24,193 nt of DNA from an uncultured Isosphaeraceae bacterium (GCA_964623715.1 CAZURP010000004.1:1-24193), one strand, 5' to 3'. Positions 277 through 5,394 are shown, numbered from the stretch's first letter. Translations and numbers: made by a program. The notes: generated from the letters alone by a model not told the origin.

Positions 277-453
277 TACGTTGGTCTGTACGATTACGAC
301 CTATAAGTAGCATAATCGAAATACTGAAAAAAGCGATAATAAACTGAAAACTTCTGTAAAAAAACGCTACACTCCTAAGTTGCTATACAAAAAAACACTA
401 CCTTTGTTAGGTATTTGTTAAGTCTTTATGGATTACTTGTGCAGGAGAGCACT

Positions 454-1020
454 TTGCTAAACGAAGAACCAGATTATCGATTGATGCGCCGAGTTGCTCT
501 TGGCGAGGAAGATGCAGTTACAGAACTGTACGATCGATATTGTGCGCTCGTTTTTAAGCTTTCATTGCAATTTCTATCCAATAATGCGGAAGCGGAAGAC
601 GCCGTACAAGAGGTTTTTGTGCGGCTTTGGAAGACCGCAGATAGGTTTGACCCCAGAAAAGCGAAGTTAGTCACTTGGGTGATGCTTATTACCAGACGTC
701 ATTTAATCGACCGTATTCGTCGAAAAACAGTACGTCCGAAACAACAAGAATTTACAGAACACCACGAAGAATCTGCAACCGATGTGCCATTACCATCGAA
801 TACATTACTACATGAACGAAACGCCTTGCTCTGGGAAGCACTCCAAGCACTCCCAGAAATGCAAAGAATTGTTATAGAACGGGCGTACTTTCATGGGTTC
901 ACTTTGCGTGAAGTGAGCAGGCAGTTAGATGCACCGCTTGGAACGGTGAAGTCGGCACTCAGTCGAGGATTACTCCGCCTGCGGGGGCAAGGAAATAAAG
1001 ATATAGCAGCCCAGTTGTAA
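454..1020 (+). CDS. ECF (sigma-70 group 4) RNA polymerase sigma factor
   Basis: Region 2 (AEDAVQEVFVRLWKTADRFD, TWVMLITRRHLIDRIR) and region 4 HTH (LPEMQRIVIERAYFHGFTLREVSRQLDAPLGTVKSALSRGL). The ORF track starts at 415, but in-frame TTG at 454 follows AGGAG (443-447) and is the preferred start. Confidence 0.93.
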   Translation: MLNEEPDYRLMRRVALGEEDAVTELYDRYCALVFKLSLQFLSNNAEAEDAVQEVFVRLWKTADRFDPRKAKLVTWVMLITRRHLIDRIRRKTVRPKQQEFTEHHEESATDVPLPSNTLLHERNALLWEALQALPEMQRIVIERAYFHGFTLREVSRQLDAPLGTVKSALSRGLLRLRGQGNKDIAAQL

Positions 1021-1077: not shown

Positions 1078-1872
1078 ATGACGAACGAAACACACAACTA
1101 TAATCAACTCCTTGAACTCGCTGTTCTTGAAGCACATGGTTTGCTTGATCCAATCGAATCCGATTTGTTCACTCGTTCGTTCCACGATGCACCAGTATCG
1201 ATTCAAGAAGAAATTATCCGTATGCAAGAAGCATTTGCGGTGGATACTTCGTTCTTGCCTGATGAGAATCCACCAGCAGAACTTCGCAAGCGCGTACTTC
1301 AGGCAGTTGCAGATACTGCTGATCAAGAAGCCCAGCGACTCGCTCCTTTGGCGCTCATTGGTGCAAGAGCAAGTGCAGCACAAACACAGTACGGCTCATC
1401 GAAAAACATTACTCTGTGGCGAACTGCCGCTGTTGTCTTGTTTGGTGTTGCTGTCGTGCTTGCGGTTATTACACTCGATACACAACGTAAAGCAAATCGC
1501 AGCGCACAACTTGCGCTGAACAGTGCAACGAATACCGCACTGAATGAATTAGTCGGTCACAAATTCAGCGAATTTGTCGGCAACCCATACTGCCAAGTTA
1601 CTCGGCTTGAACGTGCGAGTGGCGACTCCGCTGGCTATCTGCGAATTGCCCTCAACGAACGATTTGGAAATGGATTCGTCATGGGTATCGACCTTGAAGA
1701 CGGTGAAGAAATCATCATCCAGGGTACTACAACTGACGGCACTGTTATCGAACTTGCTCGGCTTACAGCAGACGGCCCGATTGTTGGTCAGGACTTTGAA
1801 ATCGACACTGCGCTTATCAGAGGCATGACAATTACTGCCCTCGACGCAAACACCGGCAAACGCTGGGTGTAA
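1078..1872 (+). CDS. Membrane-anchored anti-sigma factor (RskA-like organisation)
   Basis: Directly downstream of the ECF sigma. N-terminal LLELAVLEAHGLLDPIE resembles anti-sigma N-termini, followed by PPAELRKRVL, one TM helix (WRTAAVVLFGVAVVLAVITL) and a predicted extracytoplasmic C-terminal domain. Confidence 0.78.
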   Translation: MTNETHNYNQLLELAVLEAHGLLDPIESDLFTRSFHDAPVSIQEEIIRMQEAFAVDTSFLPDENPPAELRKRVLQAVADTADQEAQRLAPLALIGARASAAQTQYGSSKNITLWRTAAVVLFGVAVVLAVITLDTQRKANRSAQLALNSATNTALNELVGHKFSEFVGNPYCQVTRLERASGDSAGYLRIALNERFGNGFVMGIDLEDGEEIIIQGTTTDGTVIELARLTADGPIVGQDFEIDTALIRGMTITALDANTGKRWV

Positions 1873-1898
1873 CAAAACGTCATCTCACCTTGACTCCG

Positions 1899-1923
1899 AA
1901 ACGACCCCGCGGGTCGTTTTTTT
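1899..1923 (+). terminator. Rho-independent terminator of the sigma/anti-sigma operon; also copy 1 of a 19-bp palindromic repeat
   Basis: AAACGACCC-CGC-GGGTCGTTT (1899-1919), with a T7 tract at 1917-1923, 26 nt after the anti-sigma stop. Confidence 0.85.
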
Positions 1924-1950
1924 ATACACCTTTGCTTTGGCTAACTGACG

Positions 1951-2143
1951 AAAAAATCGCCGTGCGACGCACACACAGAAGGTGAGCTCAAACCCAGTAC
2001 CAGAAGGTGGGTTCGAATGCCATCATTCCAAGTCGTCCACTTCAGCGTTGCTTTGAGGCATGACTGTCGATGCGGCTTCATACGATCCCTGAGGGTTCGA
2101 TAGGATCGAGCACATACACACTGCGTGTACATCGCACGGCGAC
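1951..2143 (-). ncRNA. ssrS: 6S RNA-like structured ncRNA (~190 nt)
   Basis: On the minus strand, 2143-2121 pairs with 1978-1956 as an uninterrupted 23-bp stem (19 Watson-Crick, 4 G-U), ending in a U tract. The wobble pairs work only on this strand. Internally UCGAACCC (2100-2093) pairs with GGGUUUGA (1995-1988); GAAGCC (2079-2074), GGCAU (2021-2017) and CCCACCU (2011-2005) fall in the order expected around a 6S central bubble. Length fits 6S RNA. Confidence 0.8.
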
Positions 2144-2161
2144 TCGTTTGGTCGCCACTCG

Positions 2162-2190
2162 TACAATACCATGCTCACCATGTATCGCAA
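2162..2190. promoter_or_regulatory. Putative bidirectional sigma-70 promoter for the 6S-like RNA (-) and the MFS gene (+)
   Basis: Minus strand: TTGCGA (2190-2185), 16-nt spacer ending TGG, then TATTGT (2168-2163). Plus strand: TACAAT (2162-2167) overlaps the same bases. Confidence 0.55.
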
Positions 2191-2199
2191 GGATATTTT

Positions 2200-3468
2200 T
2201 TGAAAACCCCATCCAAAGCTCAACACGCTCGTGAACTTATTGCATGGGCATTTTTGCCTATGATGATGGGCGCCATTGAAGGCGGAGTCGTTGGCGTTCT
2301 CACAAAAAGAATGTTTGAAGGCGTTGTCGAACAGACAATACTTGACTGGTCTGTCGCCGCCCTTGCGGCAGCACAAGGTTTTGCGAGCATTTCAAGTTTT
2401 CTATGGGCTGCACTTAGCCACGGCAAACATAAAATTCGTTTTATCACAACCTTAAAAATAGCGTGCGTACTACTTGTTGGAACCGTTTCATTCGTTCCAC
2501 AAACGGCGCTCGGTCTCGCGATGTTGTTGTTCTGTGTCATCGGAACAAGGGTGTGTTACACGGGCATTGTCACATTACGGACAACCGTCTGGCAAGCAAA
2601 TTACCCTCGCACGAATCGTGCGTTCGTTGCTGGAAGAATTGCAACGGTGCAAGCGCTCGTGCTAGCAAGTGTTAGTTTTGGTGTTGGGGAGGCAATGGAC
2701 CTCAACGAAAACGCTATTCGATGGGTCTATCCAGTTGCTGCAAGTTTTGGCGTGCTGGGTGCTTGGATTTACAGCAAAATTCGAGTCCAAGGGCATAAAG
2801 AACTTTTGTCAGAGGAAAAAAGTTCGCCACACCATGTTTCATTTTTGCCTTGGAACACTTTCAAGTTGCTCTTTGAAGATAGTGCGTTCGCAAAATATAT
2901 GGGATGCCAGTTTGTCTTTGGTGTTGGAAACTTAATGCTGACCGCCCCGCTTGTCATCGTGCTCAGCGATCAGTTCGACCTTGGATACCTCGGCGAGATA
3001 ATGATTGTTTCAACCATCCCAATTCTCATGATTCCATTGAGCACCCTTTTTTGGGCGAAACTCCTCGACAAAATGCACGTGTTGTCATTCCGGTCAATTC
3101 ACAGTTGGTTCTTCGTTGTTTCTTCGCTCTGCATTGGCATCAGTATTGCAACACATTCAGTTGCTGGTCTATGGATTGGTGCTGGGATTCGCGGAATTGG
3201 TTTTGGCGGTGGCGTACTCGCTTGGAATCTGGGACACCAAGATTATGCACCCCTCGAACAGTCAAGTCGGTATATGGGTCTGCACGTCACATTGACAGGA
3301 ATTCGTGGTCTTCTCGCACCCGCGTTTGGCATGGCTATTTATACCTTCTTACACAAGAGCGGGTATCAGGCTGGGCCTTTTGTGTTCTACGTTGGGGCTT
3401 TTCTCTCTGCAATCGGTGGAATCGGCTTCATTTTGCTCGCAAAAGCACGTATATCCAACAAAATGTAG
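2200..3468 (+). CDS. MFS transporter
   Basis: About 12 hydrophobic segments in two halves separated by a hydrophilic loop (KIRVQGHKELLSEEKSSPHH); WAKLLDKMH and YMGLHVTLTGIRG are MFS-like. The ORF-track GTG at 2125 lies inside the RNA closing stem; in-frame TTG at 2200 has AAGGA (2189-2193) 6 nt upstream. Confidence 0.85.
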   Translation: MKTPSKAQHARELIAWAFLPMMMGAIEGGVVGVLTKRMFEGVVEQTILDWSVAALAAAQGFASISSFLWAALSHGKHKIRFITTLKIACVLLVGTVSFVPQTALGLAMLLFCVIGTRVCYTGIVTLRTTVWQANYPRTNRAFVAGRIATVQALVLASVSFGVGEAMDLNENAIRWVYPVAASFGVLGAWIYSKIRVQGHKELLSEEKSSPHHVSFLPWNTFKLLFEDSAFAKYMGCQFVFGVGNLMLTAPLVIVLSDQFDLGYLGEIMIVSTIPILMIPLSTLFWAKLLDKMHVLSFRSIHSWFFVVSSLCIGISIATHSVAGLWIGAGIRGIGFGGGVLAWNLGHQDYAPLEQSSRYMGLHVTLTGIRGLLAPAFGMAIYTFLHKSGYQAGPFVFYVGAFLSAIGGIGFILLAKARISNKM

Positions 3469-3497: not shown

Positions 3498-3639
3498 GCA
3501 CGGCTCGCCTGTCCTTTCAGCAGGCATGTGAACCCCCGCTGTTTCTCTCTTATTGCGCAATGTGTGCATGGAACCAACGGCTCACACAAGCAACCACGAC
3601 AGCGACCACGTGGCCAAGATTGAAATGTCGCAAACCCAC

Positions 3640-5394
3640 ATGGTAGATTACAATTTGATCGCGGATATCGGAATCGATTTCGACGAAGTCGATGCAATGA
3701 TTTCAGCCTCCCTAGGCGAAGAAGTTGCTGGCGGAAACATGGATACACTTATTTCGAGTGAAATCCAACAGTTCGTTCCTGGAAATATGCTCAAGGGGAA
3801 AATCGGCGGTAAAGCTGGTGATGATGCTGTCATCGACGTTGGCCTAAAATCCGAAGGTCTTATTCACAAGAGTGAGTTTGACGATTGGGATTCGCTCGAG
3901 TCCGGTATTGAAATCGAAGTCATCCTCGAAGATCTCGAAGATGAAAACGGCATCATTAAACTCTCCAAGCGAAAAGCCGACCGCATTCGCAACTGGGAAA
4001 AAGTTCTCGAAACATACAACGAAGGTGACATCGTTGAAGGCAAAGGCATTCGCCGAATCAAAGGTGGCATTCTTGTTGACATAGGCGTCCCTGCGTTCCT
4101 CCCTGCATCCCAAATCGACGTTCGACGACCTGGTGATGTCAATGAATTCCTTGGCAAAACAATTCGTGCTGAAATTCTCAAAATTGATGAGCCACGACGA
4201 AACATCGTCGTCAGCCGCCGAACACTCATCGAGAGTGAACGCGATGAAGCGAAGCAACGCCTACTCAACACAATCAACGAAGGCGATGTCATCATTGGCA
4301 AAGTAACGAATGTTGCTGAGTTTGGTGCGTTTATTGACCTTGGTGGAATTGATGGTCTACTCCACGTCACTGACATGAGTTGGGGACGAATCAAACACCC
4401 AAGCGATATGTGCAAAACTGGTGATGAGCTTGAAGTGAAGGTTCTTAAAGTAGACTTCGACACTGAAAAAATTGCACTCGGTCTGAAGCAGAAAGAGGCA
4501 TCACCCTGGGACGATATCGAAGGTCGCTTCCCCGTGCAAACACGCGTTACTGGCAAAGTTGTCAACCTCGTCAGTTACGGAGCCTTTGTGCACCTTGAAG
4601 ATGGTGTCGAAGGGCTTGTTCATGATTCAGAAATGTCATGGCGCAAACGAATTAACCACCCAAGCGAAGTCGTATCACCTGGAGATGAGATCGACGTAGT
4701 CGTGCTTGACATCGATAAGGACAAGCACGAAATTTCGCTTGGCATGAAGCAAGTCGAATCCAATCCGTGGGAAATCGTTGCTGAGAAATATCCAATCGGA
4801 ACTATCGTTTCCGGTGCCGTGCGAAACCTTACAAACTACGGTGCATTCGTAGAAATCGAACCTGGCATCGATGGTTTGTTGCATGTAAGTGACATTTCAT
4901 GGACAGAAAAGATTGCGCATCCAAACGAGAAATACAAGAAGAACGACGAAGTCGAATGCATGGTGCTTGAAATTGATCAAGAAAAACAACGCATCTCACT
5001 TGGCATGAAACAAATGCACGAAGATCCATGGCAAAACGCAATTCCAGAAGCGTACAAGCCTGGCATGGTTGTGCACGGCACTGTTACCAAGATTACAAAC
5101 TTCGGTGTATTTGTTGAACTTGAAGATGGACTTGAAGGATTGCTTCACATCTCCGAACTTGCTGACAAGAAGGTGGATAGCCCACAAGACATTGTCAAAG
5201 CAGGCGAAGAAGTCAATGTGAAAATTCTCAGAGTAGACCTCGATGATCGTAAAATAGGTCTATCACTCAAGCGTGCATTGTCTGGCGAAGACATTGAAGA
5301 AAACTGGGAAGCACATGTTCCAAAGAGTGACTCGCCAGAACGTGGTGGCATGGATGATCACGGTGCACTTGGTACCGACAAAATCGAACTGTAA
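3640..5394 (+). CDS. rpsA: 30S ribosomal protein S1
   Basis: Six S1 repeats (DVGLKSEG, AFLPASQID, FGAFIDLGGIDGLLHVTDMSW, YGAFVHLEDGVEGLVH, YGAFVEIEPGIDGLLHVSDISW, FGVFVELEDGLEGLLHISEL). The ORF is open from 3553; ATG at 3640 (MVDYNLI) is preferred by resemblance to planctomycete S1 N-termini, but the start is uncertain. Confidence 0.97.
   Translation: MVDYNLIADIGIDFDEVDAMISASLGEEVAGGNMDTLISSEIQQFVPGNMLKGKIGGKAGDDAVIDVGLKSEGLIHKSEFDDWDSLESGIEIEVILEDLEDENGIIKLSKRKADRIRNWEKVLETYNEGDIVEGKGIRRIKGGILVDIGVPAFLPASQIDVRRPGDVNEFLGKTIRAEILKIDEPRRNIVVSRRTLIESERDEAKQRLLNTINEGDVIIGKVTNVAEFGAFIDLGGIDGLLHVTDMSWGRIKHPSDMCKTGDELEVKVLKVDFDTEKIALGLKQKEASPWDDIEGRFPVQTRVTGKVVNLVSYGAFVHLEDGVEGLVHDSEMSWRKRINHPSEVVSPGDEIDVVVLDIDKDKHEISLGMKQVESNPWEIVAEKYPIGTIVSGAVRNLTNYGAFVEIEPGIDGLLHVSDISWTEKIAHPNEKYKKNDEVECMVLEIDQEKQRISLGMKQMHEDPWQNAIPEAYKPGMVVHGTVTKITNFGVFVELEDGLEGLLHISELADKKVDSPQDIVKAGEEVNVKILRVDLDDRKIGLSLKRALSGEDIEENWEAHVPKSDSPERGGMDDHGALGTDKIEL

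Follow-up and report, generated by a model that had tools for sequence, protein, structure and literature searches.

A probable divergent 6S RNA gene in an uncultured marine Phycisphaerae planctomycete and its relatives

Nearly all bacteria have 6S RNA, a global regulator of their RNA polymerase. It is an abundant, stable transcript that builds up in stationary phase, binds the sigma-70/SigA holoenzyme, and serves as template for pRNA. Linkage of its gene to a 5-formyltetrahydrofolate cyclo-ligase gene is common in Proteobacteria and is not universal. Ms1, which is ~300 nt long and is not known outside Actinobacteria, is a rod-like RNA that binds core RNA polymerase. A central bubble collapse helix has been described in the 6S RNAs of Bacillus subtilis and Aquifex aeolicus, and a 9-bp release hairpin in gamma-proteobacterial 6S RNAs (PMC8876501). 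PMC9130861 presents Ms1 as structurally related to 6S RNA. According to PMC5673643, homology screens reported no 6S gene in Pirellula, Rhodopirellula, and Thermogutta. Among the papers searched, we found none linking 6S RNA to Phycisphaerae or Planctomycetota; Wehner et al. 2014 may hold an earlier detection in some Phycisphaerae genome.

In this study, we analyzed the region around positions 1951 to 2156 of a 24,193-nt stretch of DNA from an uncultured bacterium (GCA_964623715.1, contig CAZURP010000004.1), hereafter called the window. A first-pass annotation had read this region as an unannotated 6S-like RNA on the minus strand. Our results suggest, at a probability of about 0.8, that the region is a divergent 6S RNA gene (the ssrS equivalent) of an uncultured marine Phycisphaerae planctomycete. 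The RNA resembles E. coli-type 6S RNA (RF00013) in its length of ~190 nt, in its predicted rod, where a closing stem is followed by a downstream helix, a putative central bubble, and a terminal stem, and in having a predicted sigma-70-type promoter of its own. It departs from the RF00013 consensus in the 5' strand of the bubble, which has ~11 nt here and ~16 nt in the consensus, and the clade scores 24-35 bits, below the 46.4-bit cut-off. On the 3' side, a hairpin resembling the release hairpin of gamma-proteobacterial 6S RNAs could form from the 3' strand of the downstream helix, but it would use the 3' strand of the terminal stem and not, as in the E. coli type, bubble residues alone. The conserved 5'-bubble motif UCGAAYCC could pair over 8 bp with that same strand of the downstream helix, the geometry of the collapse helix in B. 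subtilis 6S-1 and A. aeolicus 6S RNA; there is no sequence-level match to these two RNAs beyond the general 6S model.

The genomic setting also differs from that of E. coli. In contrast to the zapA-ssrS-fau arrangement, the RNA is not linked to a 5-formyltetrahydrofolate cyclo-ligase gene, and a Pfam scan of 17 ORFs (120 aa or longer) in the window did not detect such a domain. Unlike the ssrS locus, it is divergent from the MFS/rpsA genes and convergent with an operon encoding an ECF sigma factor. The RNA would be comparable to 6S-Flavo (RF01685) and other lineage-specific 6S-like families as a phylum-specific variant under-detected by the general model, and the region gave no match to RF01685 or another lineage-specific 6S-like family at E values up to 10. 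Ms1 shares its rod-like form, but the element described here is ~200 nt long, occurs in Planctomycetota, and matches the 6S model.

Structure and conservation of the element

The element is a long imperfect inverted repeat in the intergenic region between a 264-aa ORF and an MFS transporter gene (Table 1). Its closing stem (2143..2121 x 1978..1956) consists of 23 contiguous base pairs. The minus-strand RNA forms 19 of them as Watson-Crick and 4 as G-U pairs, without any mismatch, and the same four G-U positions become A-C mismatches when the plus strand is read, just as the first-pass annotation had claimed. The minus-strand RNA 2156..1951 (206 nt) folded at -84.8 kcal/mol with a z-score of -4.24, and none of 200 dinucleotide shuffles folded as well. 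The plus-strand RNA of the region folded at -70.2 kcal/mol with a z-score of -2.07.

Table 1. Coordinates of the RNA element and the features around it in the window
Feature	Position	Strand	Remarks
6S-like RNA, predicted primary transcript	1951..2156	-	~206 nt; fold z-score, R1 202 bits; predicted ends
6S core matched by RF00013	1955..2143	-	model positions 1-187
Closing stem, 5' arm	2121..2143	-	pairs with 1956-1978
Closing stem, 3' arm	1956..1978	-	pairs with 2121-2143
Downstream (internal) helix, 5' strand UGUGCUCGAUCCUA	2101..2114	-	pairs with 1983-1996
Downstream (internal) helix, 3' strand UGGGUUUGAGCUCA	1983..1996	-	pairs with 2101-2114
Putative central bubble, 5' strand UCGAACCCUCA	2090..2100	-	unpaired in RNAalifold consensus and Rfam alignment
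Putative central bubble, 3' strand ACCUUCUGGUAC	1997..2008	-	unpaired in RNAalifold consensus and Rfam alignment
Terminal (upstream) stem-loop	2009..2089	-	four helical segments (consensus helices 4-7), 14-nt apical loop 2041-2054
U6 tract	1951..1956	-	directly after closing stem; possible intrinsic terminator in this genome
Extended -10 TGGTATTGT	2163..2171	-	conserved as TGGTAT[TG]GT at a fixed offset in close homologues
-35-like hexamer TTGCGA	2185..2190	-	read from sequence; 16-nt spacer to -10; semi-conserved only
MFS transporter gene, corrected start TTG 2200	2200..3468	+	Pfam MFS_1; AAGGA 2189-2193, 6-nt spacer

Relatives of the adjacent MFS protein were found at 28 loci in marine Planctomycetota/Phycisphaerae MAGs, at 45-87% amino-acid identity. 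Using blastn, the element was detected upstream of the MFS gene in 25 of the 28 loci, at 70-88% nucleotide identity, and RF00013 located it additionally in L022. A covariance model (R1) was built from an alignment of 27 sequences (A1) that was made with MAFFT and is blind to structure. R1 was then run over at least 118 additional loci drawn from genome contigs with a loose core pattern. Among the matches listed, it accepted planctomycete loci only, with one match each. The loose-pattern matches in unrelated phyla were all rejected by R1, again among the matches listed, and are regarded as chance. At least 48 distinct homologues were collected in a second alignment (A2), all from Planctomycetota/Phycisphaerae MAGs and one per contig. 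A stricter core pattern gave 54 stretches in species-representative genomes, all of Planctomycetota and mostly labelled Phycisphaerae/Phycisphaerales, with one match per contig, including the complete 3.9-Mb chromosome CP070772.1. The RNA element is likewise single copy in the window according to R1. A scan of marine metagenomes for short transcript-like contigs returned 61 contigs with the stricter core pattern, all longer than 1 kb and genomic.

Covariation across homologues, which had been proposed as a check on the first-pass reading, supported a rod. RNAalifold on A1 gave a rod composed of the closing stem, the downstream helix, a central loop of ~11/12 nt, and the terminal stem-loop, which has the size and shape of 6S RNA (a 150-200 nt rod with a closing stem and a terminal stem-loop). 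In A1, 93.7% of cells pair, compared to 32-40% in slid controls; compensatory changes occur at 25 of the 48 pairs, and double-change cells number 123, compared to 11-34 in the slid controls. The corresponding values for A2, which leans towards structure because it was fitted to the model, a bias of which A1 is free, are 93.1% versus 31-40% of cells, 28/48 pairs, and 280 versus 42-80 double-change cells. Compensatory changes are seen at each of the 15 closing-stem pairs in the model and, in the 48-sequence alignment, at 10 of the 21 pairs of the terminal stem. The helix segments directly flanking the central loop are nearly invariant, and the interior of the RNA is more conserved than the stem ends. 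The conserved parts include GCUCGAUCCU in the 5' strand of the downstream helix, which hardly varies across the 48 homologues, UCGAAYCC in the 5' strand of the bubble, and an invariant CCC that, standing just before ACCUUCUGGUAC, completes a CCCACCU motif.

The first-pass annotation had also described an internal GAACCC/GGGUUU helix. Its complementarity exists: GGGUUUGAG (1995..1987) has two possible CGAACCC partners, of which one belongs to the 5' loop strand and the other to the terminal stem (3' strand). The comparative consensus, however, pairs GGGUUUGAG with GCUCGAUCC and not with the CGAACCC copies.

Synteny and neighboring genes

The gene order around the element is kept among relatives. 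An ECF sigma factor gene and the 264-aa gene are followed by the RNA on the opposite strand, then by an optional MFS gene, and then by rpsA. Many high-GC relatives lack the MFS gene, and their RNA lies divergently upstream of rpsA. In the window, the ECF sigma factor gene occupies 415-1020 (+) and the 264-aa ORF, which has no Pfam hit, 1078-1872 (+). This pair is syntenic with the RNA in most relatives, and the 264-aa ORF is plausibly the anti-sigma partner of the ECF sigma factor. The ribosomal protein S1 ORF (3553-5394, +) has 613 aa when counted from its first TTG, versus 584 or 608 aa in public calls. Loci from MAGs labelled "uncultured Isosphaeraceae" (L002, L007, L009, and others; binchicken) show 75-87% protein identity and are syntenic with those of Phycisphaerae/Phycisphaerales MAGs. 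The Isosphaeraceae label of such MAGs is probably a taxonomic mis-assignment.

The start of the MFS gene was examined together with the element. Public calls for this gene disagree, giving 447 aa from GTG 2125 on the ENA contig, which has the exact sequence, and 422 aa on the JGI contig. In the window, the MFS frame can be read from 2104 onward. The TTG equivalent in L005 has a stop just one codon before it, and L004, L009, L011-L014, and L024 carry in-frame stops between the RNA and the conserved MFS N-terminus. MFS homology starts at the residues encoded from 2200. These comparisons support the 422-aa protein starting at TTG 2200 as the better prediction over the 447-aa version, and the shift of the start from 2125 to about 2200 that the first-pass annotation had called for agrees both with the stops in the homologues and with the independent 422-aa public call. 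The same annotation had described the RNA as hidden under spurious ORFs. Mechanical ORFs do overlap it, at 1941..2132 (-), 2023..2376 (-), 2070..2234 (+), and 2078..2212 (-). Among the public gene calls, the sole overlap is the 447-aa MFS call of one caller, which extends over the 5' end of the RNA. Since no public call places an ORF on the RNA itself, the description overstates the case.

Proposed assignment to the 6S family and competing readings

The Rfam 6S model, a search that had been suggested for this region, was the sole notable family. At a lax threshold in the region 1850-2260, RF00013 (6S/SsrS) aligned along its whole length with 1955..2143 of the minus strand, scoring 32.3 bits with an E value of 5.5e-5, which refers to this 411-nt region and becomes ~3e-3 when scaled to the whole window. 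The alignment fits the helices and also the high-information consensus blocks GGGA, GCC...GG, ACCCACCU, and GG.UU. The conserved blocks of the clade, GGGAUCG, CCCACCU, and GGGUUYGAGC, align with high-information 6S consensus positions. Under the lax threshold, RF00013 also matched the orthologues L143 (35.0 bits), L007 (33.5), L099 (29.3), L038 (28.3), L066 (28.1), L022 (27.4), L021 (25.7), and L116 (24.5). Including the window, 9 of the 16 orthologues tested were matched, the best in the clade being L143. Every match in a relative coincides with its R1 match, and no RF00013 match was found off the orthologous site in the ~124 kb searched. A Hammerhead_II match at 1894-1961 (+) had an E value of 3.6, lay on the terminator hairpin of the upstream gene, and was dismissed as chance level. 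A sub-threshold sX4 match in L066 (254-401, +; 40.3 bits against a gathering score of 70) overlaps a tRNA of 62 bits, and the tRNA is the most likely cause of this match to a proteobacterial sRNA family.

With Rfam gathering thresholds, no RNA family matched in the 24-kb window, and 18 further homologue loci gave one tRNA and no 6S match. The gathering score of RF00013 is an annotation cut-off and not a biological property. As no homologue tested reaches it, annotation relying on that threshold would miss the RNA across the clade, in line with the suggestion in the first-pass annotation that divergent 6S RNAs of this lineage may be missed. In a reciprocal search with filters off, R1 scored E. 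coli ssrS at 2.7 bits (E 1.6) on the correct strand, a result that is uninformative rather than negative because R1 is narrow (effective sequence number 2.33). With its RF00013 match, no better-scoring family, and a consensus rod that contains a loop, the region keeps the 6S reading given to it at first pass. Judged by predicted structure, size, promoter motif, and statistical match, we place the element in the 6S family as a divergent member; among the points compared, it falls short only of the curated score cut-off and of a gene linkage that is not universal.

Other explanations for the region were weighed against the 6S reading. The element lies directly upstream of the MFS gene, and TACAAT (2162-2167) could act as a -10 hexamer, as would suit a plus-strand leader that regulates the MFS or rpsA genes downstream of it in cis, as a riboswitch or an attenuator. 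The strand tests favor the minus strand, however: in A1 there are 157 G-U cells versus 15 A-C cells, pairing falls from 93.7% to 82.7% of cells if the other strand is assumed, and R1 scores the window at 202 bits on the minus and 26.5 bits on the plus strand. The distance between the MFS gene and the RNA also varies from 53 to 851 nt among homologues, many relatives lack the MFS gene altogether, and the plus-strand fold reaches a z-score of only -2.07. A leader is therefore very improbable. A protein-coding role is even less credible. ORFs of 44-117 aa and the MFS extension to GTG 2125 are open in the window, and one public caller used that GTG, but most close homologues interrupt the 63-aa minus-strand frame (1941..2132) no later than codon 17; the break is at codon 17 in L006, L005, L020, and L001 (85-88% identical) and at various points in most others. 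Apical-loop length varies among homologues with indels that are not multiples of three, in-frame stops precede the TTG equivalent in many of them, and substitutions follow compensatory base pairing. A repeated or mobile palindromic element, or an oversized terminator hairpin, could account for the long inverted repeat followed by a T run, and we regard it as equally far-fetched: the window holds one copy, 54 genomes have it once per contig in fixed synteny, there is no minus-strand gene upstream to terminate, the T run is missing in 29 of 40 homologues, and conservation is higher in the interior than at the stem ends. Taken from sequence comparison, the region is a minus-strand RNA gene, neither coding sequence nor plus-strand leader.

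Within a minus-strand RNA gene, the rod might have arisen in a lineage-specific structured sRNA with another job, such as base-pairing or protein-sponging, whose shape yields a moderate 6S score by convergence. The RF00013 score stays below the gathering threshold everywhere, R1 does not recover E. coli ssrS, and the minimum-energy fold of the free RNA has no open bubble, all of which would be expected of such an RNA. Yet RF00013 aligns over its full length and matches conserved sequence blocks besides the helices, it finds the orthologous element in 9 of 16 relatives tested, the window included, and nothing else, and size, promoter, and single-copy status all fit 6S RNA. A different job is thus unlikely, and a divergent 6S RNA is the preferred reading.

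Predicted transcription, proposed mechanism, and significance

The RNA is predicted to be its own transcription unit with a sigma-70-type promoter carrying an extended -10. The upstream promoter proposed in the first-pass annotation is supported by conservation of TGGTATTGT: the pattern TGnTAnnnT stands at the matching position in 32 of 40 homologues, and in the L016-L018/L025 group, in which the MFS gene is 460-850 nt away, the extended -10 still lies beside the RNA. A sigma-70 consensus scanner reported no promoter sites here, with its 9-of-12 rule unmet, and the promoter is visible only via conservation. The -35-like TTGCGA overlaps the Shine-Dalgarno sequence of the MFS gene on the opposite strand. 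In addition, the minus-strand extended -10 (2171..2163) overlaps TACAAT, a good candidate for a plus-strand -10 hexamer, 32 nt upstream of the MFS start. As the two divergent promoters would share the same few base pairs, they could exclude each other.

The predicted 5' end of the transcript is G2156, 7 nt after the -10 and ~13 nt before the closing stem. A leader of this kind would be compatible with 5' trimming, a step that E. coli 6S RNA is known to undergo. In single-sequence folds of most close homologues, the 5' leader pairs with the beginning of the closing stem's 5' arm (its first 5-7 nt) to give a small hairpin (2138-2156, -), for example GGCGAC/GUCGCC, GUGAC/GUCAC, and UGACC/GGUCA. 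RNAalifold on a MAFFT alignment gave no consensus pairs for this hairpin, which could be a co-transcriptional folding intermediate or a processing signal.

The 3' end would be placed by the U tract. This tract, noted at first pass, is present in the window as U6 at 1956..1951 after the stem, where a terminator scanner reported terminator-like sites, but a T run of at least 4 follows the stem in just 11 of 40 homologues, and some relatives have a separate small terminator hairpin in its place. Since the U tract is not conserved, the 3' end of the RNA is uncertain. By eye, a GC-rich hairpin (ACGACCC..GGGTCGT, ~1901-1923, +) was seen after the 264-aa gene, flanked by an A run on one side and a T run on the other. 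It resembles a terminator working in both directions, and transcription reading through from the RNA gene might also end there; on the plus strand, it was not among the sites of the terminator scanner. The hairpin motif ACGACCCGCGG recurs downstream of the RNA in L005 and L006.

By analogy with characterized 6S RNAs, we propose how the RNA may act. A minus-strand RNA of ~190-206 nt, transcribed from its own promoter, would form a rod in which the closing stem and downstream helix are followed by the central loop and the terminal stem-loop. The rod would mimic an open promoter and sequester the RNA polymerase holoenzyme containing the housekeeping sigma factor, lying in the DNA channel of the holoenzyme with its internal loop where the bubble of an open promoter would otherwise be. 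From the 5' loop strand and the adjoining conserved GUGCUCGAUCCUAU, the polymerase may then copy a short pRNA, for which the 5' strand of the downstream helix, UGUGCUCGAUCCUA, would be the template. Alignment to E. coli via the Rfam model places the pRNA start at ~U2100, and the predicted pRNA is 5'-AUAGGAUCGAGCAC. While the pRNA is being made, the downstream helix would come apart, leaving GGGUUUGAGC free to pair either with UCGAACCC of the 5' loop strand or with CGAACCC on the 3' side, and release of the polymerase would follow. Expression, polymerase binding, pRNA synthesis, and refolding are all predictions.

The two pairings of GGGUUUGAGC were examined in 48 homologues. With UCGAAYCC of the 5' loop strand it forms 8 bp, and 95.3% of cells are paired; with CGARCCC on the 3' side it forms 7 bp, and 99.1% of cells are paired. 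By analogy, these pairings would correspond to the collapse helix and, loosely, to the 3' release hairpin of E. coli. Covariation in the UCGAAYCC helix was indistinguishable from that of shuffles. Because the residues involved in refolding barely vary, covariation cannot confirm the collapse helix or the 3' hairpin.

At the place of the 6S central bubble, the covariation-supported consensus has a loop of ~11/12 nt, but the minimum-energy fold has two hairpins there. Likewise, single-sequence folding, which had been named as a check, supported a structured minus-strand RNA by its z-score but closed the bubble into the same two hairpins. The sequences flanking the loop are quasi-palindromic, and each strand can form its own perfect, conserved 7-bp hairpin. 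In close homologues, the resulting cruciform is the minimum-energy fold of the free RNA, with an advantage of 1-7 kcal/mol over the rod, in which two mismatches (U-U and A-R) are invariant. As the helices flanking the bubble are nearly invariant, covariation cannot separate the open-bubble rod from the cruciform. A correlated double change in L006 (A67G with R153C) creates a G-C pair across the rod and favors the rod. In L014, a G to A change breaks a rod pair and turns a U-G wobble of the collapse helix into U-A. Both conformers, rod and cruciform, may be real. One tentative extension, which we hold to be rather doubtful, is a two-state 6S RNA that is a cruciform when free, is opened into the rod by polymerase, and is closed again upon pRNA synthesis, with its own synthesis inversely coupled to MFS/rpsA transcription through the -10 region that its promoter would share, back to back, with the plus-strand TACAAT.

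For a specialist, the finding would be unsurprising; the gain is incremental, in that a known family is extended and no new mechanism is revealed. Its use lies in annotation and in 6S phylogeny. The public annotation of the MFS protein would be corrected to 422 aa, and the 48-sequence alignment can serve as the seed for a clade-specific 6S model. These results suggest a covariation-supported 6S candidate in at least 54 species-level Phycisphaerae genomes, which would fill part of the planctomycete gap in the distribution of 6S RNA.
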